NCBI GenBank assembly: GCA_902566305.1 | Contig: CACFIK010000001.1 | Coordinates: forward strand, 29,205 to 93,204 | Source: an uncultured SAR86 cluster bacterium | GTDB lineage: Bacteria > Pseudomonadota > Gammaproteobacteria > Magnimaribacterales > AG-339-G14 | Direction of reading: 5' to 3' | Length of the DNA: 64,000 bases | In this document: in pieces, positions 10,723-64,000 of the stretch | Numbering within the stretch: position 1 is the first letter of the stretch | How the letters are laid out: each line of letters begins with the position of its first letter | Position numbers and translations under genes: made by a program | Notes under the pieces: generated by a model | Seen by the model: the letters and a program-made list of their open reading frames with translations, nothing else | Database searches by the model: none | What the model was told of the DNA's origin: nothing

Positions 10723-11703
10723 ATGTCAGATTTCTGGAATCTCCCGGATGGAGTCGAAGAAATCGTTCCTCCTCTTTCTTCTAACTTAGAAAAAACAAAA
10801 ACTGAGTTACTAGATTATTTTCAAAATAAAGGTTTTGATCTCATTTTTACTCCTTTGGTCGAATATTCTGATTCTATAGGAGGTCTAGCAAATGAAGAAT
10901 TATCAAGGTCGAGTTTTCAGTTTTCAGATACAAACTCGGAAAGATCTCTAGCTTTAAGACCTGATATTTCACAACAGGTAGCTAGAATAGACAGAAGATT
11001 TCTAACTGAAAAAAATAAAAAATACTGTTACTACGGCGAAGTTACAAAAAAACCACTTGGCTCTTTTACTAAAGCAATCAGCACCATGAAAGTTGGGCTA
11101 GAAATTTTTTACGAAAGCGAGAAAGGCGTCAAAGAGGATATTTTTAATGCCTTATCTGGAGCTCTTAAAAAATTAGGCCTCAAAGATTATGTCCTCACCA
11201 TTGGTGATATTTCTATTCTTGATGAAATACTAGATAAACTGAGATTCCCTTTAGATAAAAGAAATAAACTAAAGAGTATTTTATCCTCAAGATCAAAAAG
11301 TGATTTATCTGAATTTCTAAAGCAAGAAGGTAAAGGAAAAAGAACTTTAGTAATGTTGTCTAATTTACTCGACATTATTGGTGATTATGAGCAGGAATTT
11401 AAGAACCTTAATTTAATTTGCAAGGAATTAAAAATTGATCCTAAAAAATTAAGAAGCATCAAACAATCTTTCGATATTCTTGAAAAAAATAAAATTAAGA
11501 ATGTTTTAGTTGATATGGTTGATTTTCCTGGTTACTCGTATCACTCTGGTATAGTTTTTTCTATCTTTCAACCAAAGACGGGAGTGCCCTTAATTAATGG
11601 CGGGCAATATAAAACTCCTTTTTCAAAAGCAAATAAAAAAGAAAGAAAGGGTATGGGTTTTGATATAGATTTAATCTCTATTTTAAAATTACAAAGTAAA
11701 TGA
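10723..11703 (+). CDS. hisZ: ATP phosphoribosyltransferase regulatory subunit (HisRS paralogue)
   Basis: 326 aa with a class-II aaRS-like core (LPDGVEEIVPP..., ALRPDISQQVAR). It occupies the conserved hflC-hisZ-purA position and has a 4-nt overlap with purA. Confidence 0.85.
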   Translation: MSDFWNLPDGVEEIVPPLSSNLEKTKTELLDYFQNKGFDLIFTPLVEYSDSIGGLANEELSRSSFQFSDTNSERSLALRPDISQQVARIDRRFLTEKNKKYCYYGEVTKKPLGSFTKAISTMKVGLEIFYESEKGVKEDIFNALSGALKKLGLKDYVLTIGDISILDEILDKLRFPLDKRNKLKSILSSRSKSDLSEFLKQEGKGKRTLVMLSNLLDIIGDYEQEFKNLNLICKELKIDPKKLRSIKQSFDILEKNKIKNVLVDMVDFPGYSYHSGIVFSIFQPKTGVPLINGGQYKTPFSKANKKERKGMGFDIDLISILKLQSK

Positions 11704-12983
11704 CAAAAACGCAAAATTTTGCAGTTCTCGGTCTTCAATGGGGAGATGAGGGAAAAGGAAAAATAGTAAACTTCTTGTCCCCAAATTTTCATGCAACTTG
11801 TAGATTTCAAGGGGGTCATAACGCAGGCCATACTCTTATTGTGAATGGCAAAAAATTAATTCTTCATTTACTACCATCTTCTATCTGTGAAAAAGATGCT
11901 CTTTCGCTGATTGGCAAAGGTGTGGTTCTTTCACCCAATGACTTATTTGAGGAAATATCAGAAGCCAATACTTTTTTAGATGGTGTCGAAGATAGATTAA
12001 AAATAAGTTCTGCCTGCGTTCTTATCCTCGATCATCATAAAAAATTTGATCAATGCAGAGAAAAATCTAATTCATTTAAAACTATTGGAACCACTGGGAG
12101 AGGTATAGGTCCTGCATATGAAGATAAAGTAGGAAGGAGAGCAATTAGATTGGTTGATTGTTTTTACGAAAAGATTTTGGAAGAAAAATTAAGGGAAAAT
12201 TTAGATTTTTATAATTTTATGTTTAATAAACTTTTTTCAGTTGAAGAGGTTAGTTTTCAGGAAACCTTTGAAAAGGCCTTAAGTTATGGTGAAAGATTGA
12301 GACCTATGACGAAAGATATTTCTAAACTTATTATAGAAATGAACAATGATGGAAAGAAGGTTCTTTTTGAAGGTGCTCAAGGAGCTTTATTAGATGTCGA
12401 TAATGGAACTTATCCTTATGTTACTTCAAGTAACTCATCTGCAGCTGGTATTGCTTCTGGTTCTGGCTTAGGACCGCTATCGGTAAGTAATATTTTAGGT
12501 ATTGCAAAAGCCTATACTACTAGGGTCGGAGAGGGGCCAATGCCTACAGAATTGTTTGATGACATTGGTATTCATATTGCAAAGAAAGGTGGCGAGGTAG
12601 GGGCTACCACAGGAAGGCCAAGAAGATGTGGATGGTTTGATGCTGTTGCTATGAAAAAGGTTATTCAATCTAACAGCGTTAAAAGCCTTTGTATTACAAA
12701 ACTTGACGTATTTGATGGAATGGAAAGTATTAAAATTTGCGAAAGCTATGATAATTCAGATGAATTCTTTGAGGAATCTCTCAATCTAGATCACGTAAAG
12801 CCTCAATATATTGAGTTATCAGGATGGAAAAAACCCATTTATGGTTTAAAGACTTTGGATGATTTTCCAAACGAAGCCTTAGAATTTATTTCTAAAATCG
12901 AAGAGGTTTGCGGTGTATCTGTTGACATCATTTCAACTGGACCAGAAAGAGAAAGTACTATATTCAAAAACGATATTATCTAG
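11700..12983 (+). CDS. purA: adenylosuccinate synthase
   Basis: 427 aa. Motifs GLQWGDEGKGKIV, GGHNAGHT and TTGRGIGPAYEDK. Confidence 0.96.
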   Translation: MTKTQNFAVLGLQWGDEGKGKIVNFLSPNFHATCRFQGGHNAGHTLIVNGKKLILHLLPSSICEKDALSLIGKGVVLSPNDLFEEISEANTFLDGVEDRLKISSACVLILDHHKKFDQCREKSNSFKTIGTTGRGIGPAYEDKVGRRAIRLVDCFYEKILEEKLRENLDFYNFMFNKLFSVEEVSFQETFEKALSYGERLRPMTKDISKLIIEMNNDGKKVLFEGAQGALLDVDNGTYPYVTSSNSSAAGIASGSGLGPLSVSNILGIAKAYTTRVGEGPMPTELFDDIGIHIAKKGGEVGATTGRPRRCGWFDAVAMKKVIQSNSVKSLCITKLDVFDGMESIKICESYDNSDEFFEESLNLDHVKPQYIELSGWKKPIYGLKTLDDFPNEALEFISKIEEVCGVSVDIISTGPERESTIFKNDII

Positions 12984-54523: not shown

Positions 54524-55032
54524 TCCCAAATTTAATATCTCTATCAAGGATATTTTTTATATTTCCTATCATCTTATTTCTTGTAATGAATGATGTTCAT
54601 TTAGCTCTTCTATTCTTTTTGATAGCAAGTTTCACTGATTTTTTAGATGGATATGCTGCAAGATATCTAAAACAAGAATCTGTTTTAGGTGCTAACTTAG
54701 ACCTTTTGGCAGATAAAATTTTTGTTAGCAGTTTATTAATTTTTATATCTTTTCATTTCGATAATCTTATTTTTTTAATGATGACAATATTAATCATTGC
54801 CAGAGAAATCTCTATTGGAATCATACGCCAACACTCATTGGAGACAAGTAACGAAAATAAAGCTAAAGTTAATTTTCTTGGCAAATTCAAAACTTTTTTT
54901 CAAATTTTTACCATCGGGCTTGCAATGATCTTCTTGGATTCTAAATTTGATCAAATTGTAGAGATCTTTGTGATTATTACAGCTGTTTTGTCTTGGTTAT
55001 CTCTTCTTAACTACTCTTATGCCAAAAGTTAG
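54520..55032 (+). CDS. pgsA: CDP-diacylglycerol--glycerol-3-phosphate 3-phosphatidyltransferase
   Basis: 170 aa. CDP-alcohol phosphatidyltransferase motif DFLDGYAARYLKQESVLGANLDLLADK. Conserved position downstream of uvrC and upstream of tRNA genes. Confidence 0.9.
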   Translation: MIPNLISLSRIFFIFPIILFLVMNDVHLALLFFLIASFTDFLDGYAARYLKQESVLGANLDLLADKIFVSSLLIFISFHFDNLIFLMMTILIIAREISIGIIRQHSLETSNENKAKVNFLGKFKTFFQIFTIGLAMIFLDSKFDQIVEIFVIITAVLSWLSLLNYSYAKS

Positions 55033-56131
55033 AAATATCCCTTTCATTGATCTTAGTCTAAAGAAAACAGACCTAGACAAAACAATTAGCAATATTTCTA
55101 AACTTATCAAAGAAAAAAATTTTATCGGAGGCAACGAAGTTAAAGGTTTCCAAGAAAATTTTTCAAAGTTTAACAAAAGTAAATATTGTCTTGGGGTAGC
55201 AAATGGAACAGATGCCTTAGAAATTGCTTTAGAAAGTTTAGATATTCCCAAAAACTCTGAAGTCATAGTCCCAAATTTTACCTTCTTATCTCCTGCGGAG
55301 GCTGTTGTGAGAGGGGGTTATAAATTAGTCCTAGCCGATATAAATCTAGATGATTTCACAATTTCAATAGAATCTCTTAAGAAGCTTGTAACAAAAAAAA
55401 CTAGCGCTTTGATAGTAGTGCATTTATTTGGAAACCCATGCGATATGATCGAAATTAAAAAAATTACTGATGAATATGGTATTAAAATTATTGAAGATTG
55501 CTCTCAGGCTCATGGTGCGCAATTCAAAGGAAAAATTGTAGGTAATTTTGGAGATATTGGAACATTCAGCTTTTACCCTACAAAAAATTTAGGAGCATTT
55601 GGAGATTCTGGAGCTATAGTTACAAACAAGAAAAGTCTTTATGAAAAAGTTCAAAAAATAGCCAATCATGGAAGAGTGGCAACTTATGATCACGTGCTTG
55701 CAGGAAGAAATTCAAGACTGGATTCAATTCAAGCTTCGGTGTTAAATTTTAAAATTCAAAATTTAAATAAACATAATGAATTAAGAATTGAACAAGCCTC
55801 TTATTTAATAAAGGCAATCAACTCATCAAACATAAGAACTCCTAAATTAACATCAGATCAGTGGTCTGTATTTCATCAGTTTCCAATTTTATCTAGAGAC
55901 AGAAAATCTCTAATGTCTTTTTTAAGAAAAAAAGGAATTAATTGTGGAATCTATTATCCAAAGCCATTAAGTAAAATGAAGGCCTTTAGCAATATCGATT
56001 CGAGAAGAAAAGTTCATTCAAAAAACTCTGAAATAGCATGCAATAGAATTTTAAGCCTTCCCATCGGTCCTCATTTGAATATAAAAGATTCAGAATACAT
56101 AGCTAATGCTATACAATCATTTTCGAAATAA
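55019..56131 (+). CDS. DegT/DnrJ/EryC1/StrS-family PLP-dependent sugar aminotransferase
   Basis: 370 aa. Motifs NGTDALEIAL, EDCSQAHGA and PLP-lysine motif FSFYPTKNLGAFGDSGA. Ends 2 nt before tRNA-Cys. Confidence 0.9.
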   Translation: MPKVRNIPFIDLSLKKTDLDKTISNISKLIKEKNFIGGNEVKGFQENFSKFNKSKYCLGVANGTDALEIALESLDIPKNSEVIVPNFTFLSPAEAVVRGGYKLVLADINLDDFTISIESLKKLVTKKTSALIVVHLFGNPCDMIEIKKITDEYGIKIIEDCSQAHGAQFKGKIVGNFGDIGTFSFYPTKNLGAFGDSGAIVTNKKSLYEKVQKIANHGRVATYDHVLAGRNSRLDSIQASVLNFKIQNLNKHNELRIEQASYLIKAINSSNIRTPKLTSDQWSVFHQFPILSRDRKSLMSFLRKKGINCGIYYPKPLSKMKAFSNIDSRRKVHSKNSEIACNRILSLPIGPHLNIKDSEYIANAIQSFSK

Positions 56132-56133
56132 AT

Positions 56134-56207
56134 GGCTGAGTGGCAGAGTGGTTATGCAGCGGACTGCAAATCCGTGTACGCCGGTTCGATTCCGACCTCA
56201 GCCTCCA
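56134..56207 (+). tRNA. cysT: tRNA-Cys (anticodon GCA)
   Basis: 74 nt. Acceptor stem GGCTGAG/CTCAGCC, anticodon loop CTGCAAA, T-arm GGTTCGATTCC, encoded CCA end. Layout closely matches E. coli tRNA-Cys. Confidence 0.95.
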
Positions 56208-56233
56208 ATTAATTAGAGAGATTAGTAAGCAAG

Positions 56234-57094
56234 ATGTATAAAATTGGAATAATAGGAAAAGGTTTTGTTGGGTCAGCAGTAGCTCATGGATTTTCTGAAA
56301 GCGTAGGCTATAAAGCTGAAATAAGAATACATGATAAAGATCCATCTAAATCACAAAATTCCCTCGAGGAAGTTATTCGAGAATCTGATTTCATTTTTAT
56401 ATCTGTCCCAACTCCATCAAAAAGCGATGGATCTATCAGTTTAAAAATTCTTACAGGCTGTTTAAGTGATATTTCTTCTATTGCTGAGAAAACAAATTCA
56501 TCTCCAATTATTTTACTCAGATCAACAATTATTCCTGGAACATCTTCAGAAATGCAGAAAAGATTTCCACATCTAAAAATTGTTTTCAATCCAGAGTTTC
56601 TAACAGAAAGATCTGCATATTTTGATTTTCTCAGTCAAACTAGATTTGTGCTCGGAGGAGAAAAAGAAAATGTTGAGAAAGTTGAAACTCTTTATAAACA
56701 TCGTTTTGGAAGAGAAATCGCAGTTATCAAAACAGATTTTGAATCCGCAGAGTTGATAAAATATGTCTGTAATAATTATTTTGCTACTAAAGTTTCTTTT
56801 TTAAATGAGATGAAACTAATTTCAGATAAAATAGATGCAAATTGGGATCATGTGATGGAAGGCTTTCTCCGTGATGGCCGAGTAGGCCATTCTCATACCC
56901 AAGTTCCAGGCCCAGATGGAAAGAGGGGTTTTGGAGGAAGCTGTTTTCCAAAGGACATACAAGCAATGATTAAATTTAGTGAGTCAATAGGTATTGAGCC
57001 GAACGTTTTAAGAGGTTCTTGGAAAACAAACTTAGAAGTAAGGCCTGAAAAAGATTGGGAAAATTTAAAAGGGAGAGCCATAGAAGATGATTGA
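56234..57094 (+). CDS. UDP-glucose/GDP-mannose dehydrogenase-family protein lacking the C-terminal UDP-binding domain
   Basis: 286 aa. Rossmann motif IGIIGKGFVGSAV, NPEFLTERSA, and catalytic Cys motif GFGGSCFPKD at residue 237. The protein ends 49 aa after that Cys, and the stop lies 6 nt before tRNA-Leu. Confidence 0.75.
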   Translation: MYKIGIIGKGFVGSAVAHGFSESVGYKAEIRIHDKDPSKSQNSLEEVIRESDFIFISVPTPSKSDGSISLKILTGCLSDISSIAEKTNSSPIILLRSTIIPGTSSEMQKRFPHLKIVFNPEFLTERSAYFDFLSQTRFVLGGEKENVEKVETLYKHRFGREIAVIKTDFESAELIKYVCNNYFATKVSFLNEMKLISDKIDANWDHVMEGFLRDGRVGHSHTQVPGPDGKRGFGGSCFPKDIQAMIKFSESIGIEPNVLRGSWKTNLEVRPEKDWENLKGRAIEDD

Positions 57095-57100
57095 TTATTT

Positions 57101-57187
57101 GCCCGGGTGGTGGAATTGGTAGACACAAGGGACTTAAAATCCCTCGAAGGCGACTTCGTGCCGGTTCAAGTCCGGCCCCGGGTACCA
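57101..57187 (+). tRNA. leuZ: tRNA-Leu (anticodon UAA)
   Basis: 87 nt. Acceptor GCCCGGG/CCCGGGT, D-arm GGTGGAATTGGTAGACAC, anticodon loop CTTAAAA, long variable arm, T-arm GGTTCAAGTCC, encoded CCA. Very similar to E. coli leuZ. Confidence 0.95.
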
Positions 57188-57199
57188 CTTATCTAAGTT

Positions 57200-58042
57200 A
57201 TGAATGACAATATTGATTCAAATGAAACTATCATAAACTTGATAGATGAGATTAAGTTTCTGAACGAGTTTAGAAAACTTCTTATTATCTCTTCAATTTT
57301 TTTTGGGGTAATTTCTTTTATTTATGGCTTAACTTTGCCTAAAGAGTATGTTTCTAAAGTTACTTTCATTCCAACTGATACCAATTCCACAAGCGGCTCA
57401 TCAAGCGCACTATCTGGAATCGCAGGTTTGGTTGGGGTTACTGTAAGTGAAGGACCAACGAAAAAGGCGATAGCCTTAGCAGTATTGAAATCTAATATTT
57501 TTCTTGAAGAATTTGCAGATAAAAACGATATCACTAGGTATCTTTTTCCGGAAGCTTGGGATAAAAAAAATAGAAAATGGAAAACTGAAAAACCTTCTGG
57601 AGATTCAATTGGCTCTAAATTGAGAGATTTATTTAGTGTTTCTGGGTCCCAGTATGATATTTATGAATTGAATTTTGAGTGGACGGATTCTTCACAAGCC
57701 TCAAGTTGGTCAAACCTAATAATTTCAGAATTAAATAATCATCTAAGGACTCAAGATATAGAAGAAGGTCAAAAAACAATTTCTTATTTAAAAAATCAAC
57801 TTAAGATTAACGATGTCAAAACAATAGATAATGTTTTCTTTCAAGTCATGGAAGAACAAATAAAAAGTAATATGCTTTCAAATGTGAAGGACGACTATAT
57901 CTTTAAAGTACTTGATAAAGCCATCCCCGCACAGAATCCGTCTAAGCCAAAACTTCTTCAGATGTTTTTTGTTGGAAGTATAATTGGATTATTCCTAACA
58001 ATTATTTTTATTTACACAAGGCGTAGACTTTTTAAAAGTTAG
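57200..58042 (+). CDS. Wzz-like polysaccharide chain-length determinant (polysaccharide co-polymerase)
   Basis: 280 aa. N-terminal Wzz motif region (ETIINLIDEIKFLNEFRKLLII plus a TM segment), a periplasmic helical middle, and a C-terminal TM segment (LLQMFFVGSIIGLFLTIIFIY) followed by basic residues. Confidence 0.7.
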   Translation: MNDNIDSNETIINLIDEIKFLNEFRKLLIISSIFFGVISFIYGLTLPKEYVSKVTFIPTDTNSTSGSSSALSGIAGLVGVTVSEGPTKKAIALAVLKSNIFLEEFADKNDITRYLFPEAWDKKNRKWKTEKPSGDSIGSKLRDLFSVSGSQYDIYELNFEWTDSSQASSWSNLIISELNNHLRTQDIEEGQKTISYLKNQLKINDVKTIDNVFFQVMEEQIKSNMLSNVKDDYIFKVLDKAIPAQNPSKPKLLQMFFVGSIIGLFLTIIFIYTRRRLFKS

Positions 58043-58057
58043 GAACTTAATTTTCTA

Positions 58058-59839
58058 ATGTATTCTGATCTAAAGTATCTTTTTAAAAAGAAAGAAAATT
58101 TTCAAATTTCACTGTTATTGGTTGGTTCAATAATCATGGCCTTTTTTGAGGTAGTGGGGGTTGCATCTATTCTGCCATTTATGAGTATGGTTCTTGATCC
58201 AGATCAAATTTCATCTAACCAAGTCTTGAGCTTTCTTTTTAATTTTTTTAATTTTAATGATGTCGAAACTTTTCTATTTTATTCAGGTGTAGCTGTATTA
58301 GTCCTTCTGGCTTTTTCAAACTTCTTTAGTGCTTTCATGTATTGGGCAATTACTTATTTTTCTAAGATGCAAGGACACATTATCTCTATGAGATTGCTAA
58401 AACACTATCTCTCAAATAATTATTTATTTTTTTTGGAGAGAAATTCATCTGATTTAGGAAAGAATATTCTTTCTGAAATTGATAGGGTAGTTAAAGGCGT
58501 CGTTTTACAGGCATTACAAGCCATCTCTAAGGCTATTTTAACCATAGTAGTTTTAGCTTTTCTGATATACATAAATCCCGTTATTGCCATCATGACCATT
58601 TTGAGCATAGGAGGAGCTTATTTATTTTTTTACATCATTACTAGATCCTACTTATCAAGAATTGGAGAAAAACAATCCATAGCTCTTTTCAATAGATTCA
58701 GGACTGTCGATGAAGCAATGATGGGAATAAAAGATATAAAGCTTAAATCTTTAGAAAGAAATTTTATTGGCAGATTTAGACAACCTTCAATAGATAATGC
58801 AAGATTTTCTGCACAAAGCCTTGTAATAGCAATTTTGCCTAGGTATCTCCTAGAGACAGTTGCTTTTGGAGGAATTATATCTATTATTTTGATCTTGCTT
58901 TCCAATGATGTCCTGATTTCAGAAATAATTCCTGTCTTATCGCTCTATGCAGTGGCTGGATATAGGTTACTGCCCGCTGTGCAAAATATTTACTCTGCTC
59001 AATCAATGATCAAATACAATCATCCAGCTTTGATGATAATCATCAATGATTTAAAAGAAATTGAAGACGCAGGAAAGAATAAGCAATCAAATAAAGAAGA
59101 TCAAAAGATCATATTTGATAAAAAAATTACTTTAGATAATATCCTTTTCAAATATCCTAAATCTAAAAAAAATGTCATTGATGGCGTTTCATTATCAATA
59201 AAGAAAAATACATCCGTTGGGTTTGCAGGATCCACAGGCTCAGGAAAAACAACTTTGATTGATATCATCTTAGGTTTGCTAAATCCTATAGATGGCAAAT
59301 TTATGATCGATGATATTGTCATTAACAATAATAATCTATTGTCTTGGCAAAATAAGATTTCTTTCGTGCCTCAAATGATTTTTTTGATAGATGAATCTAT
59401 AAGATCAAACATAGCTTTTGGAATTGAACCCAACGACATTGATCAGGATAAAGTGGTAAAAGCAGCTAAACTAGCCAATTTGGATAGTTTTGTGAGTGAC
59501 TTACCTGAAAAATATAATACTTTGGTCGGAGAGAATGGTGTGAAACTTAGTGGAGGTCAGAGACAAAGAATTGGAATTGCTAGGGCTTTATATAATGAAC
59601 CAGAAGTATTGGTTTTAGATGAGGCTACAAGCGCTCTTGATGGAATTACTGAAAACTACGTAATGGAAGCCATAGAATCCCTGTCAAATAAATTAACTTT
59701 AATTACAGTGGCGCATAGAATATCAACTATCGAAAATTGTGACATGATCTATTTTTTGGAAGATGGAAAAATAAAGGATTATGGAAATTTTAGTCAATTG
59801 ATCAGCAAAAATGCTCAATTTAAAGAGATGGCTTCATGA
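58058..59839 (+). CDS. fused permease/ATPase ABC exporter (type I exporter; candidate lipid-linked glycan flippase, PglK/MsbA-like)
   Basis: 593 aa. Six-TM N-terminal half, Walker A GSTGSGKTT, signature LSGGQRQR, Walker B LVLDEATSALD. Confidence 0.85.
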   Translation: MYSDLKYLFKKKENFQISLLLVGSIIMAFFEVVGVASILPFMSMVLDPDQISSNQVLSFLFNFFNFNDVETFLFYSGVAVLVLLAFSNFFSAFMYWAITYFSKMQGHIISMRLLKHYLSNNYLFFLERNSSDLGKNILSEIDRVVKGVVLQALQAISKAILTIVVLAFLIYINPVIAIMTILSIGGAYLFFYIITRSYLSRIGEKQSIALFNRFRTVDEAMMGIKDIKLKSLERNFIGRFRQPSIDNARFSAQSLVIAILPRYLLETVAFGGIISIILILLSNDVLISEIIPVLSLYAVAGYRLLPAVQNIYSAQSMIKYNHPALMIIINDLKEIEDAGKNKQSNKEDQKIIFDKKITLDNILFKYPKSKKNVIDGVSLSIKKNTSVGFAGSTGSGKTTLIDIILGLLNPIDGKFMIDDIVINNNNLLSWQNKISFVPQMIFLIDESIRSNIAFGIEPNDIDQDKVVKAAKLANLDSFVSDLPEKYNTLVGENGVKLSGGQRQRIGIARALYNEPEVLVLDEATSALDGITENYVMEAIESLSNKLTLITVAHRISTIENCDMIYFLEDGKIKDYGNFSQLISKNAQFKEMAS

Positions 59840-61563
59840 AGATAAGTATTTTGGCAGTAATTCAAGCACGAGGTGGTTCGAAAGGAATTCCGAAGAAAAA
59901 TATTTATCCTATAGGAGGATATCCGCTGATTTCTTACACTATTGCAGCCGCAAAAAAATCAAAATTTATCACAGATCTTGTAGTCTCAACTGATTCAGAA
60001 GAAATAGCAGAAGTAAGTAGATCTTATGGAGCAGATGTACCTTTTAAAAGACCAAAGAAATTGGCTGGAGATAAAGTTTTTTCTGTTGACTCCCTTCATC
60101 ATGCGGTTCTTGAAACTGAAAAAATTTATAAAAAAAAATATGATTTTATTATTGAGTTACCTTGTGTTGCTCCATTAAGAGATAGTCATGATATTGATGG
60201 TGCGTTGAGTATGCTAATCGAAAAAGGTTCTGATTCAGTAATTAGTGTTGTTGGAACGGGTGAAAAACATCCAGTTAGATTAAAAAAAATAATTAAAGGG
60301 AGAATTCGTGATATGACTGTAGAGTTTCCAGAGCCAGGTCAGAATTCAAGAAGGCAAGATCTTTTTCCGCCCTCATATATAAGAAATGGTGCAATTTATG
60401 CTATGAAAAGAGAAGTGCTTATTGAAGAATTCTCTAGACATGGGTCTGATAGCCTTGCCTTTGTAATGGATGAGAATAAGTCCGTGAATATAGATACTGT
60501 TGAAGATTTAACAATAGCAGATTTTAAAATTAACAATGGGGAGTGCAACAATAATCCTTGGGAAGTAAAGCAAAACAAAATTGAATTCTTTAGAAATAAA
60601 GATAAGAAAATTTTATTGGTAACAACTCCTTTACATTTTATTCCTAAAATTAAAGAAAAATTAAAAGAAAAATACTCATGCATTTTTGCAGCAGAAGCCA
60701 AAGAAAAAGATATTATTGACTTACTTAAATCTGAAAAAGTAGAAGCTTGGATATGCAGCCCAAGCCCAAAGTACAAAATTGATAAAAAAATTCTTAATAA
60801 TTCTAAAAATATAAAACTTATTATTACCCCATCAACAGGTTCCAATCATATAGATAAAGAATATTGCAAAAAAAGGAGGATTACTGTTTCTAGTTTGAAA
60901 GATACAAGCTTTGTAAAGGAAATCTATGCCTCATCTGAGTACGCTTTTTCTTTAATTTTATCTGTCGTAAGAAATCTACCTCAAGCATCAAGAAGTTCTT
61001 TAGCTTATAAATGGAGAGAAGTTGAAGATAACTTCAGAGGAGTTGAACTGAGAGGTAAAAACCTTGGAATAGTTGGGTTTGGAAGAATAGGATCTAATGT
61101 TGCAAAGTATGCTATCGCAATGGGCATGAATGTCGTTGCATATGACCCTCAAAAAGTTATCAAAGGTAAGGTAAAACAATACAAGTCAATAAAGCAACTT
61201 TTAAATCACTCAGATATTGTTCTTATCGCCGTTCATTTAGATAGTAAAACTAAAGATATGGTTGATAAAAAATGGTTTGATTCAATGAAAGACGGTGTTT
61301 ACTTTATCAACATCTCCAGAGGAGAAATTGTTGTAGAAAAAGATTTGATCAAGGCCCTTAGTTCTGGAAAAATCAAATCAGCAGGGCTTGATGTTATAAG
61401 AAATGAAATTTCAAATGATATAAAAAGAAGTAAAGTAATAGATTACGCTAGAAACAATGAAAATTTAATCATTACTCCTCATATTGCAGGTCTGACTATT
61501 GATTCAGAACTTAAGGCAGCAGAATTTGCTATCAAAATGTTATTTAGAAATTTAAGGCCCTAA
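59836..61563 (+). CDS. fusion protein: N-acylneuraminate (nonulosonate) cytidylyltransferase domain + D-isomer-specific 2-hydroxyacid dehydrogenase domain
   Basis: 575 aa. Residues 1 to about 230 carry [19 protein letters not shown] and the CMP-NeuAc-synthetase-like fold. Residues from about 255 to 575 form a complete 2-HADH domain with [13 protein letters not shown] (NAD binding) and the catalytic Arg/Asp/His contexts NISRGE, GLDV and TPHIAG. Confidence 0.8.
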
Positions 61564-61565
61564 TT

Positions 61566-62228
61566 GTGAAAGCCAAATCTATCTCAGTAATTGTTTGTAC
61601 TTATAATCATGCTAAATGGATCGAGAGATGTTTAAGAAGTCTTTTGAATCAAGACTTTATAAACGAAAATGATTTTGAAGTGATATTAGTTGATGATTGC
61701 AGTGAAGATTCAACATCTTCAATTTTAGAAAAATTTTCAAATGAGAAAAATTTAAAAATTATCTTCAATGAACAGAATATGGGTTTGCCATCATCTATCA
61801 ATAAAGCAATGCAGGAGTCTGTTGGGAGATATATTGTTAGAGTTGATTCAGATGATTACGTTCAGAGAACATTTCTTTTTCACATGAAATTTTTTCTTGA
61901 TTTTAATAGATTCTATCAAGCAGTCTGTGTTGATTATTACAAAGTAGATGAAAATGAAGAGATAATATCCAGAAAAAATGGTTTAGAAGATGAGATAGCT
62001 TGCGGTGTTATGTTTAGAAGAGAATGTCTATTTGACATAGGTTTATATAATGAAAACTATTCTATGAGAGAAGGTCATGAATTACGAAAAAGATTTCTTA
62101 AAAAATTCTCTTTGGGCCACTTAGAACTTCCTCTTTATAAGTATAGAGATCATGCAAATAACAGAACGAAACAGTCGAAATTATTGAAGAAATTCGACCA
62201 TAAATTATCAGAGGATTTTAAAGAATAA
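61566..62228 (+). CDS. family 2 glycosyltransferase
   Basis: 220 aa with a GTG start. Motifs [27 protein letters not shown] and the DxD-like RVDSDD. Confidence 0.85.
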
Positions 62229-62272
62229 CCTCTCCATTAAATTGTTATAATTTGAAATCTAAAAATTAAAAA

Positions 62273-62968
62273 ATGATATTCGTAGCTGAAATAGGATTGA
62301 ATCATGAAGGAAATTTTGATCTAGCCCTTGAGATTATTCGGCAAGCTAAAAAATCTGGTGCCGATATAGCAAAATTTCAATTAGGCTGGCGAGATGGAAA
62401 AAATGAAATTAATCATATTGATCTTGACACTGCTCTGAAGTTAAAAGAATTCTGCGATTTCGTTGATATTGAGTTCATGGCATCCATTATCACACCAAGC
62501 GCATTTGAGCTTGCTCAAAAACTAAACTTTAATAGATACAAAATTGCATCAAGAACAGTAGTTGATCATCCTAAATTATGTGAAGAGATTATTTCTTCTG
62601 GTAAAGAGGTATTTTGTTCATTGGGGTTTTGGGAGGGAGTTGAATTCCCCTTTGGGGCTCCAAATTCAAAGCTGAGATATATTCATTGCGTGTCAAACTA
62701 TCCAAATACTCCTGAGGATTTAAGAAAAATGCCACCTAACTTTTCTGAAAAATCTTATTTTGGTTACAGCGATCATTTTTTAGGCAATTCTGCATCTTAT
62801 GTCGCAATATCAAGAGGAGCAAAATTTATTGAGAAACATCTGACTCTAAATAAGGCATCTCAATCTATAAGAGATCATACTTTAAGCATTACACCTGACG
62901 AATTTAGAGAGCTAGTTGATATTGGGAGAGAGATTTCAAAAACTCATCCATTTACAGAAAAAAATTAA
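62273..62968 (+). CDS. NeuB-family (N-acetylneuraminate/nonulosonate synthase-like) PEP-condensing enzyme without a SAF domain
   Basis: 231 aa. Motifs VAEIGLNHEGNFDLALEIIRQAKKSGADIAKFQ, YKIASR, HCVSNYP, GYSDH and IEKHLTL match the NeuB TIM-barrel domain. The canonical C-terminal SAF (antifreeze-like) domain of roughly 80-100 aa is absent. Confidence 0.75.
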   Translation: MIFVAEIGLNHEGNFDLALEIIRQAKKSGADIAKFQLGWRDGKNEINHIDLDTALKLKEFCDFVDIEFMASIITPSAFELAQKLNFNRYKIASRTVVDHPKLCEEIISSGKEVFCSLGFWEGVEFPFGAPNSKLRYIHCVSNYPNTPEDLRKMPPNFSEKSYFGYSDHFLGNSASYVAISRGAKFIEKHLTLNKASQSIRDHTLSITPDEFRELVDIGREISKTHPFTEKN

Positions 62969-63028
62969 CTGTTTATGCAATTAGTAATCATTGCGTTGGA
63001 TTAGGCTGTATTATTTATCTTCAAGAAA

Positions 63029-64000
63029 ATGAAGGATTCAGAGATAAAAAACTTTAGTTTATTGCCAGTTACCATCTTGAGTAGTTTTGGACATAATGGC
63101 CTAGACTGGATTCATAGTCTGCTTGATGGGCATGATGAAATAGTTTTGATGCCAGCATATAGTTTTTTTAGAACTCTAGATTTTTATGAAAAAGAAAAAG
63201 GTAAAAATTTAATTGAGAATCAAAAAAGAAGATCTATTTCAAAAGAATTTACAGAATATGTATTCAATAATCCCTCTTATCAGGTCGTAAGAAGAAAGTT
63301 TTTATTTAGCGAGAAAAATGCTAAAAGATTTGAATTTTATCTAAATGAATACCTTCAAAGAACAGAAGAAAAGAGTAATTTAAAGGCTCTTTTTTTTGGC
63401 ATTAATTTCTCTTACTGTAAAGTTTTCAATATAAATATTTCAAATATAAAGACAATAATTTCACAAGAACATGTTTCTTGGCACACTGAAAAGTATAAAA
63501 ATATATTTAATGCAAATTTTATCTTTATGATGAGAGACCCAAGAGCAGGTTTGGCTGGGGGCTGGAAAAGACAAGTTGAAAATGCAGGCTATCCTTCAAT
63601 AAATCCTTACGATTTTGATAAAGGTATTTTAGCTGGAACTTATTTAGAGCATTTTTGTAAAAAGCATAAGAAATATATTGATGAAAAAGCTCGCATAATG
63701 GTAAATGAAAAAATGCATCAAAACCTAAAAAAAGAAATGCAAGACTTATGTTCTTGGCTGAAATTAGATTTCTTAGATTCTTGTCTAGAAGAAACTTTTT
63801 TAGGCAAAGAATGGTTAGGTGAAAGCTCTTATCTAGGAATAGATGAACTCTCCGAAAGGCCTCCCATAGATTTTTATACGGAAGAAAATGTAGAGAAACG
63901 ATGGAGAAAAAGATTAAATGAAAATGAAATAATAATGATTGAATATCTATTTAAGTATTCTTTTCACGTCTTTGGTTATTCTAGAGATACGCAGAATGAT
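63029..64000 (+). CDS. sulfotransferase-like protein (5' part; runs off the right window edge)
   Basis: Open frame from the ATG at 63029 to the window end (324 codons, no stop; not in the supplied track). It begins MKDSEIKNFSLLPVTILSSFGHNGLDWIHSLLDGHDEIVLMP, a P-loop-like 5'-PSB region, and has MMRDPRAGLAGGW, a 3'-PB-like RDPR motif. Confidence 0.5.
   Translation, partial: MKDSEIKNFSLLPVTILSSFGHNGLDWIHSLLDGHDEIVLMPAYSFFRTLDFYEKEKGKNLIENQKRRSISKEFTEYVFNNPSYQVVRRKFLFSEKNAKRFEFYLNEYLQRTEEKSNLKALFFGINFSYCKVFNINISNIKTIISQEHVSWHTEKYKNIFNANFIFMMRDPRAGLAGGWKRQVENAGYPSINPYDFDKGILAGTYLEHFCKKHKKYIDEKARIMVNEKMHQNLKKEMQDLCSWLKLDFLDSCLEETFLGKEWLGESSYLGIDELSERPPIDFYTEENVEKRWRKRLNENEIIMIEYLFKYSFHVFGYSRDTQND

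Follow-up and report, generated by a model that had tools for sequence, protein, structure and literature searches.

Recognition of bacterial surfaces by phage, grazers and complement, and likewise serotyping, depends to a large extent on nonulosonic and octulosonic acids. Some of the synthetases that activate such acids carry an extra C-terminal domain that tailors or scaffolds, as in NeuA of Escherichia coli K1 and group B Streptococcus (a cytidylyltransferase with an O-acetylesterase) and in vertebrate CMAS (a cytidylyltransferase with a HAD-like domain). In the CDP-ribitol synthases Bcs1 and TarI-TarJ, a nicotinamide-dependent oxidoreductase is combined with a cytidylyltransferase and the two serve one metabolite, either fused, as in Haemophilus influenzae, or as separate proteins. 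A 2-hydroxyacid dehydrogenase as the partner of a CMP-sialate synthetase was not described in the literature that we searched. This combination is encoded by a gene in a stretch of 64,000 nucleotides (the window) from an uncultured SAR86 cluster bacterium (assembly GCA_902566305.1, contig CACFIK010000001.1, positions 29,205 to 93,204 of the forward strand), where a NeuA/PseF-like cytidylyltransferase domain (CT) is fused to a SerA-like D-2-hydroxyacid dehydrogenase domain (DH). The protein represents a new variant of ulosonic-acid activation inside a widespread uncharacterised module. Going by gene content and order, the fusion is one permutation of this conserved module, which comprises a presumably active CT, a DH, a small glycosyltransferase of family 2 (GT2) and a short NeuB-only synthase (NeuBs). 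The module probably makes and CMP-activates an unusual acidic sugar for the cell surface.

The fusion gene and its two domains

The fusion gene consists of one unbroken reading frame (Table 1). Three Pfam matches, all exceeding their gathering scores, divide the protein into CTP_transf_3 (residues 7–159, E 2e-20), 2-Hacid_dh (269–356) and 2-Hacid_dh_C (371–551, E 8e-50), which agrees with an earlier note on this DNA that had read the gene as a single polypeptide joining a CMP-nonulosonate synthetase-like domain to a D-2-hydroxyacid dehydrogenase. The note had also raised the concern that a frameshift might have merged two genes. Such a frameshift or assembly artefact can be ruled out, because a near-identical open reading frame (ORF) is found in two independent assemblies, the SAR86 single-cell genome AG-461-A21 (99% identity) and a metagenome contig (100% identity), and because more than 120 protein clusters of 557–612 aa, at 49–70% identity, have the same architecture. 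A homologue search with the fusion gave 1055 database matches at E≤1e-5, of which the top 120 were all full length, while about 13–15 clusters (at 50% clustering) are full-length CT-DH fusions down to 35% identity. These counts also rule out a rare or unique architecture. The carriers belong to at least four phyla and include SAR86, Pelagibacteraceae, Burkholderiales, Magnetococcales, Halobacteriovorax, Flavobacteriaceae and Leptospira.

AlphaFold2 models the fusion as two confident domains (mean pLDDT 89.4, pTM 0.77) joined by a conserved linker, and a Foldseek search returned no solved structure covering both. Both halves look catalytically competent from their conserved residues.

The CT domain is aligned from end to end (residues 6–231) by the NCBIfam PseF model TIGR03584, at 142.6 bits and so below the equivalog cut-off of 205.7; its CTP_transf_3 score is 73.8 bits against a cut-off of 22.6, and its best relative in the PDB is the Vibrio CMP-NeuAc synthetase 6ifd (E 1e-32). 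A true PseF or NeuA orthologue is ruled out by the curated cut-offs. The CTP-binding P-loop (A-R-x-x-S-K-G-x-P-x-K-N) is present, with K16, K21 and N22 invariant and R12, G14 and S15 nearly so among 30 homologues. Further residues invariant in that set are R72, E107-L-P-C110, K144-H-P146, R148, K150, R173-Q174, R183-N-G185, N218 and D220. The C-terminal metal motif D-x-D (Asp209/Asp211 in Neisseria meningitidis) reads N218-I-D220 in the window, and the Asn is invariant in the fusion family. Unpartnered canonical CTs keep D-I-D: the first Asp is replaced in 16 of the 18 DH-partnered CTs as compared to none of seven unpartnered ones (Fisher p 7e-5). Fusion-clade CTs also have the motif HPxR(L/M/I)K, never found in the unpartnered CTs of ordinary nonulosonate loci. 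By these residue patterns, the DH-partnered CTs are a distinct subfamily with N-x-D for D-x-D and extra Arg/Lys.

For the DH domain, the Pfam scores of 169.1 and 38.2 bits (PF00389/PF02826; cut-offs 25.1 and 24.6), the PDB sequence matches 3kb6 and 1wwk, and Foldseek (TM 0.86–0.88 to PHGDH, 6cwa, and to the Pyrococcus horikoshii phosphoglycerate dehydrogenase, 1wwk) all agree on a genuine dehydrogenase fold, as the earlier note had assumed, and Foldseek places the SerA/PHGDH/McyI clade nearest. All of 120 homologues share the triad R495, E524 and H549, the motif G414-x-G416-R-I-G419 and D437, which specifies NAD, and the family-specific CT pocket is likewise invariant. The motifs singled out in the earlier note, among them NISRGE, GLDV and TPHIAG, are all present; alignment to solved family members assigns the catalytic acid to Glu524 in "RNE", not to the Asp of GLDV. 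SerA equivalog cut-offs are missed (TIGR01327, 174.5 vs 454 bits; PRK11790, 151 vs 404 bits), and a true SerA orthologue can be ruled out on the basis of such curated cut-offs. The NCBIfam glyoxylate reductase models also score below cut-off on this half. In a hand alignment to the human PHGDH sequence, the phosphate-binding R54 and R75 presumably correspond to Ser308 and Thr331, and R394, which follows the conserved Trp393, presumably lies near the position of PHGDH R135.

The four-part module in other genomes

All four components lie within a few kb in the window, and the gene order given in the earlier note, an upstream ABC exporter gene overlapping by 4 nt and a GT2 and a NeuB-like gene downstream, is real. 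The GT2 gene starts 2 nt past the stop codon of the fusion. In every fused locus with enough flank, a GT2 (53–81% identity) directly follows the fusion, and NeuBs (43–54% identity) is present in these loci except L011. Recurrent additional genes of the fused loci encode a PglK-like ABC exporter, UGD together with a short-chain dehydrogenase/reductase (SDR), a TylF methyltransferase and an NCBIfam "LIC12162 family transferase", and also MBOAT and a formyltransferase with a polysaccharide deacetylase. The 230-aa NeuB-only protein is the only NeuB in the window and the fused-tier loci, and neither Epimerase_2 nor PseG is found there, whereas a nonulosonic acid cluster (NeuC/PseBCHG or LegBCHG with NeuB and NeuA) has a full-length synthase including SAF and, in addition, a hydrolysing epimerase or UDP-sugar hydrolase.

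NeuBs retains the equivalents of the phosphoenolpyruvate (PEP) and metal residues of N. meningitidis NeuB (E25, K53, Q55, K129, S132, S154, Y186, H215, E234, H236 and D247), and its family comprises 1140 clusters, all of about 230 aa. PDB entry 6ncs, a NeuB-like chain of 290 residues from Leptospira borgpetersenii that is distant from NeuBs (59 bits), shows that a NeuB protein can fold on its own without SAF.

We surveyed 80 metagenome loci anchored on NeuBs, of which 38 were informative. A GT2 lies within 3.5 kb in 32 of the 38 and a DH in 25 (directly adjacent in 23), while a CT-DH fusion occurs in two, making the fused layout of the window a minority permutation. The commonest layout is a GT2 with a C-terminal CT-like domain (GT2+CT') followed by NeuBs and DH, or DH followed by NeuBs, with a separate CT upstream. 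The GT2 of the module usually carries this CT-like domain of about 230 aa, for example in L086 (12479–13915), L017 (13729–15093), L088, L089 and some 30 metagenome loci. The GT2 in the window has no such tail; it is homologous to the GT2 half of the GT2+CT' proteins (28% identity, E 6e-28). The CT' tail has lost the P-loop and the metal motif and has almost no conserved residue, which makes an active cytidylyltransferase unlikely; judged by these losses it is probably non-catalytic, and a role in CMP-sugar binding or in docking is possible.

Separate, adjacent and often overlapping CT and DH genes occur in Bacteroidota, Acidobacteriota, Actinomycetota, Prochlorococcus, Coxiellaceae and an Asgard archaeon. 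A distant tier of these unfused pairs belongs to ordinary nonulosonate clusters with NeuC, NeuB carrying a SAF domain (NeuB+SAF), WbuX/HisH/HisF amidino genes and BFO_1060 or TagF-like transferases, the DH-partnered CT being the sole CT in each locus. Fusions in the reversed order, DH-CT, are also found (P0257 and P0347), and the CT half of P0257 keeps D-I-D. The existence of both orders means that these families were fused on at least two independent occasions. Taken together, the fusions in both orders, the adjacent genes and the partnered-CT subfamily show a functional coupling of CT and DH at the level of gene organisation.

Some further arrangements were observed. NeuB+SAF is fused to a cytidylyltransferase in proteins of 588–666 aa (L088 4845–6617, L100, L109, L126 and P0295); these lie directly upstream of GT2+CT' and short NeuB, mostly in DH-less loci, which thus contain two NeuB paralogues. 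In two marine loci, phosphonate cassettes with a PEP mutase fused to CTP_transf_like, a thiamine pyrophosphate (TPP)-dependent decarboxylase and an iron-dependent alcohol dehydrogenase stand directly beside the module (L087 1–3258, L089 9691–15397). We consider them separate from the module, and none is present in the window, so that a link to phosphonates was rejected. Wzm/Wzt exporters, the Wzt having a C-terminal carbohydrate-binding domain, are found beside methyl-, carbamoyl- or sulfotransferases in L003 (4327–6434) and L017 (4734–9095), which hints at a possible role of the sugar acid as a cap that ends the chain when O-antigen is made by the ABC-transporter-dependent route.

Replacement of the dehydrogenase by a LarA-type enzyme

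A close relative of the same CT subfamily is fused to a LarA-type (Lar_N, nickel-pincer) 2-hydroxyacid racemase/epimerase. This architecture is found in at least 27 clusters (P0310 and relatives), including proteins encoded in L170 (9001–10977) and L171 (9001–11025). The other loci analysed contain no LarA homologue; the family came to light only in an exhaustive search of representatives. The CT-LarA locus is homologous to those of the module, with an ABC exporter, CT-LarA, GT2+CT' (40% identity, E 2e-112), a formyltransferase and a deacetylase (35–41% identity to Leptospira genes) and NeuB. In L170, CT-LarA is translationally coupled to a NeuB-only gene and two UGD-like genes are nearby. CTs of this subfamily with 51–54% identity to that of P0310 are also fused to S-adenosylmethionine-dependent methyltransferase domains (P0495–P0503, 482–531 aa).

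In some unfused loci, an enolase-superfamily protein of the MR/MLE type is encoded together with three MocA oxidoreductases, and six of the 19 unfused loci have acid-sugar-type MR/MLE enzymes and MocA oxidoreductases. Judged by family membership, three unrelated families acting on the alpha-carbon of alpha-hydroxy acids are thus recruited beside this CT. The replacement of DH by LarA in a homologous locus indicates that the role of the partner is chemistry at an alpha-hydroxy-acid carbon. As LarA needs a pre-existing alpha-hydroxy acid and performs no net redox reaction, the relevant alpha-hydroxy-carboxylate would exist independently of DH.

The fusion was mentioned in passing, in one line, for Leptospira santarosai (PMC4758666). 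Our search of the literature, including that on the 2-hydroxyacid dehydrogenase classification, the Tannerella glycan, Leptospira comparative genomics and the LarA superfamily returned no function for the CT-DH fusion or the module. The architecture is common, as the 1055 matches attest, but uncharacterised. We found no characterised pathway with this combination, in line with the earlier note, to which it was not familiar from characterised sialic, legionaminic or pseudaminic acid pathways. The LarA papers describe sugar-acid epimerases and no CT fusion. As a precedent, a paper on E. coli K15 proved a false lead, serA being a flanking marker there.

Proposed function and competing explanations

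We propose that the fusion is a bifunctional enzyme in a cell-surface glycan module with four steps, a scheme whose chances we put just short of even. NeuBs would condense PEP with an aldehyde to a 3-deoxy-2-ulosonic acid, as its retained PEP/metal site suggests. The CT domain, a full-length homologue of NeuA/PseF with conserved catalytic motifs, would use CTP to form the CMP ester of this acid. GT2 or a neighbouring transferase would then place the sugar acid on a lipid-linked glycan that the adjacent ABC exporter would flip. The NAD-dependent, SerA-like DH domain is predicted from comparative genomics to act on the same pathway intermediate as the CT. Gene context thus points to an unusual CMP-activated sugar acid, as the earlier note had suspected.

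The dicarboxylic nature of the product is the more tentative part. The CT requires the C2 hemiketal hydroxyl of a 2-keto-3-deoxy acid, so that reduction at C2 would be self-defeating, and a second carboxylate is proposed because it offers the only position where 2-hydroxyacid chemistry spares the anomeric centre needed by the CT. A sugar acid with a second carboxylate is the chemically simplest reconciliation of the demands of CT and LarA. We therefore suggest, while thinking it rather more apt to fail than to hold, that the sugar acid may be dicarboxylic ("ulosaric"), made for example from an aldose derived from a UDP-uronic acid, and that DH sets the oxidation state or the configuration of its distal alpha-hydroxy-carboxylate. 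It is possible, if still doubtful, that this is an undescribed class of ulosaric acids, possibly aminated and transiently N-formylated, with a distal stereocentre set by DH or LarA. For a dicarboxylate we count the UGD-like genes near 19 of 37 loci with NeuBs and DH as compared to three of 38 ordinary nonulosonate loci (p 3.6e-5), the two UGD-like genes beside CT-LarA in L170, the invariant Arg/Lys gained and the acidic residues lost by CT and NeuBs relative to their canonical relatives, the MR/MLE and MocA enzymes of the unfused loci, and the AsnB-type amidotransferases in several loci. The position of DH in the SerA/PHGDH/McyI clade, whose known substrates are dianionic, is consistent with it.

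Several points weigh against an ulosaric product. About one third of the NeuBs loci have no DH at all, and a substitute reductase was looked for in these and none was found. The distant unfused CT and DH pairs stand in NeuC/NeuB(+SAF) clusters, with UGD nearby in only two of 18; the substrate loop of their DH differs from that of the fusion clade, so that its substrate may differ too. The pair of UGD and SDR could supply an unrelated residue, such as xylose or, together with DegT and the formyltransferase, a sugar like 4-amino-4-deoxy-L-arabinose (Ara4N), a reading favoured by the formyltransferase and deacetylase of the Leptospira-type loci. A D-specific DH and an epimerase would not be strictly equivalent on a uronate-derived, L-configured alpha-carbon unless an oxidase acted before them. 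Finally, the argument from charge shifts depends in part on the roles of residues in N. meningitidis NeuA/NeuB and human PHGDH.

We rank as the main rival, and consider unlikely, a process where DH supplies a free D-2-hydroxy acid from pyruvate, hydroxypyruvate, oxaloacetate or 2-oxoglutarate, with LarA racemising the common L-isomer to the same product, which would end up in the glycan or nonulosonate as a substituent or aglycone (glyceroyl, lactoyl, malyl or 2-hydroxyglutaryl). This includes the supply of an acyl substituent that the earlier note had offered as one mechanism. A D-isomer is the natural common outcome of a D-specific reductase and an alpha-hydroxyacid racemase, the SerA/McyI clade uses malate, 2-oxoglutarate and 3-phosphoglycerate, and the DH of Prochlorococcus is followed by a TPP-dependent 2-ketoacid enzyme. 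Tannerella has N-glyceroyl nonulosonates for which the responsible gene was reported as unknown, but its cluster is described with only hypothetical ORFs beside pseF and no dehydrogenase is mentioned (PMC6120980). A ligase, acyl carrier, acyl-activating enzyme and acyltransferase are, moreover, all outside the conserved set, and there is no plausible chemistry by which the CMP ester of a simple hydroxy acid could be transferred; three separate types of fusion specifically to the CT, and the partnered-CT subfamily, would be left unexplained. With a probability lower still, DH might feed NeuBs, by oxidising glycolate or D-glycerate to glyoxylate or to hydroxypyruvate equilibrating with tartronate semialdehyde, which NeuBs and PEP would convert to a short dicarboxylic 2-keto-3-deoxy acid, such as 3-deoxy-hex-2-ulosaric acid, for activation by the CT. 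The module would then be self-contained; DH stands immediately beside NeuBs in most loci, the best matches of DH include glyoxylate and hydroxypyruvate reductases, and the lost SAF cap and loop of about 25 residues and the three gained invariant Arg of NeuBs fit a small anionic aldehyde. NAD-linked oxidation of glycolate or glycerate is, however, thermodynamically unfavourable, the ring hemiketal required by a NeuA-type CT is out of reach of a C5 product, the enrichment of UGD is unexplained, and so is the exchange of DH for LarA, which cannot generate an oxo-acid.

Action of DH on C2 of the ulosonic acid itself, interconverting the 2-keto acid and a 3-deoxy-aldonic acid for salvage, proofreading or a reduced residue, is in our judgement very unlikely. 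It had been the other suggestion of the earlier note, which placed the dehydrogenase on the open-chain 2-keto group, and it draws on the fact that ulosonic acids are 2-keto acids, on 2-hydroxyacid dehydrogenases that reduce 2-ketoaldonates (9m0t, a probable 2-ketogluconate reductase) and on the common gene order of NeuBs followed by DH. Such a reduction would, however, destroy the very anomeric hydroxyl needed by the fused CT, and in a homologous system without a reductase the place of DH is taken by LarA. A 3-deoxy-aldonic acid residue of this type is also not known from any glycan. Most improbable of all, in our opinion, is a mainly structural or regulatory DH domain, an oligomerisation platform or NAD(H) sensor for the CT like the inactive C-terminal domain of vertebrate CMAS or like CtBP. 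CMP-sialate synthetases do acquire non-catalytic C-terminal domains, and the GT2 partner in this same system already has a degenerate, apparently non-catalytic CT-like domain; but invariance across the 120 homologues extends to Arg495, Glu524, His549, the NAD motif and the residues of the substrate loop, in other loci DH has a gene of its own beside NeuBs, and it can be replaced by a different catalytic family.

Gene neighbourhood in the window

The fusion and its partners lie among further glycan genes (Table 1). The genes of this region are all on the + strand and overlap or are separated by gaps of at most 105 nt, and the GC fraction of positions 55000–64000 is 0.320 as compared to 0.343 for 1–54500. 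Such features fit one operon that lies at the margin of a variable glycan island.

Table 1. Positions in the window of the fusion gene, its domains and the neighbouring genes
Feature	Position	Strand	Evidence
DegT-family sugar aminotransferase, first gene of the glycan operon	55019..56131	+	Pfam DegT_DnrJ_EryC1, E 1e-96
UGD-like nucleotide-sugar dehydrogenase, 286 aa	56234..57094	+	Pfam UDPG_MGDP_dh_N and central domain only
Wzz-like chain-length determinant (weak match)	57200..58042	+	Pfam Wzz and GNVR, E 3e-4, below cut-off
PglK/MsbA-like ABC exporter, overlaps start of fusion by 4 nt	58058..59839	+	NCBIfam PglK, E 1e-107, below cut-off
CT-DH fusion gene, 575 aa (ATG at 59836, stop ending at 61563)	59836..61563	+	Single ORF; Pfam; >120 full-length homologues; AlphaFold2
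CT domain, aa 1–235, NeuA/PseF-like CMP-ulosonate synthetase, DH-partnered subfamily	59836..60540	+	PseF model; 6ifd
Conserved inter-domain linker, aa 236–258	60541..60609	+	Invariant N239 and P241 (30 diverse homologues); block pLDDT 77–90
DH domain, aa 259–575, SerA/PHGDH-like NAD-dependent D-2-hydroxyacid dehydrogenase	60610..61560	+	Pfam; 3kb6; 1wwk; Foldseek
Small soluble GT2, 220 aa, GTG start	61566..62228	+	Pfam Glycos_transf_2, E 2e-30
NeuBs, short NeuB-only synthase, 231 aa, no SAF domain	62273..62968	+	Pfam NeuB, E 1e-33
5' part of 379-aa ORF with weak sulfotransferase similarity, extends past the window	63029..64000	+	Sulfotransfer_1/_3, E ~0.015

The UGD-like protein lacks the C-terminal UDP-binding domain. 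A protein of the same length occurs in two other SAR86 genomes at 96–97% identity and, because the length is conserved in this way, the short gene is probably functional and not a pseudogene. The 379-aa ORF cut by the end of the window is complete in L001 (8713–9852), where an adenosine 5'-phosphosulfate (APS) kinase gene lies farther downstream (11663–12190). In L017 and L018, clear sulfotransferases flank CT and DH or sit between them. The sulfotransferase-like ORF, the APS kinase and these sulfotransferases together suggest that the glycan or the sugar acid is sulfated.

Significance

The analysis delimits a widespread gene module that has over 1000 members in the databases and no assigned function, and that ranges from SAR86, Pelagibacteraceae, Flavobacteriaceae, Magnetococcales, Burkholderiales and Halobacteriovorax to Leptospira O-antigen loci. 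Its signature is a CMP-sugar-acid synthetase subfamily obligatorily partnered with an alpha-hydroxy-acid enzyme, either a 2-hydroxyacid dehydrogenase or a nickel-pincer LarA homologue. If the module does make a new activated sugar acid, the known repertoire of CMP-activated sugars would be extended, LarA homologues would gain their first role in glycan biosynthesis and there would be a genetic marker for a surface structure, both in the hypervariable glycan islands of bacteria that dominate the ocean and in the serovar loci of Leptospira. Were the acid indeed ulosaric, it would be a surface decoration of abundant marine bacteria (SAR86, SAR11 relatives and Flavobacteriaceae) and of some Leptospira serovars. 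As the module has only three or four genes, an in vitro test is direct.

Comparison with known systems

The CT domain shares with NeuA, PseF, LegF and KdsB (PF02348) a homologous fold over its full length, the P-loop and the region of the C-terminal metal motif. It differs from these enzymes in having Asn for the first Asp of D-x-D, ELPCVxPLR for LQPTSPLR and the extra invariant R148 and K150, in scoring below the PseF equivalog cut-off and in being fused to a dehydrogenase. The DH domain is closest in sequence and structure to SerA phosphoglycerate dehydrogenase and McyI, with which it shares the Arg/Glu/His triad, GxGxxG and the NAD-specifying Asp, whereas the fusion has no ACT or ASB regulatory domain and its gene lies in a glycan locus and not in the serine pathway. 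NeuBs keeps the TIM-barrel PEP and metal site of canonical NeuB, PseI and LegI but has only about 230 aa, with no SAF/antifreeze-like domain and a deletion of about 25 residues after strand 2; E134 of N. meningitidis NeuB is replaced by Thr, R40, R94 and R200 are newly invariant, and scores are well below the equivalog cut-offs.

By domain content, many loci of the module resemble the Arn pathway of L-Ara4N synthesis (Ugd, ArnA, ArnB, the GT2 ArnC, the deformylase ArnD and ArnT), as they contain UGD, SDR, a DegT aminotransferase, a formyltransferase, a polysaccharide-deacetylase-family protein and a GT2, and L171 also has a PMT_2/ArnT-like protein. The Arn pathway has neither NeuB nor CT, however, and the GT2 of the module is soluble and short or carries a CT-like tail. 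In the bifunctional NeuA and CMAS proteins, the appended domain differs from DH in fold and chemistry. Bcs1 and TarI-TarJ combine an IspD-type cytidylyltransferase with a reductase of the short-chain (SDR) or medium-chain (MDR) type to convert an alditol phosphate to a CDP-linked product, and their folds are unrelated to those of the fusion, where a NeuA-type CT, forming the CMP ester of a sugar acid, is joined to a 2-hydroxyacid dehydrogenase.

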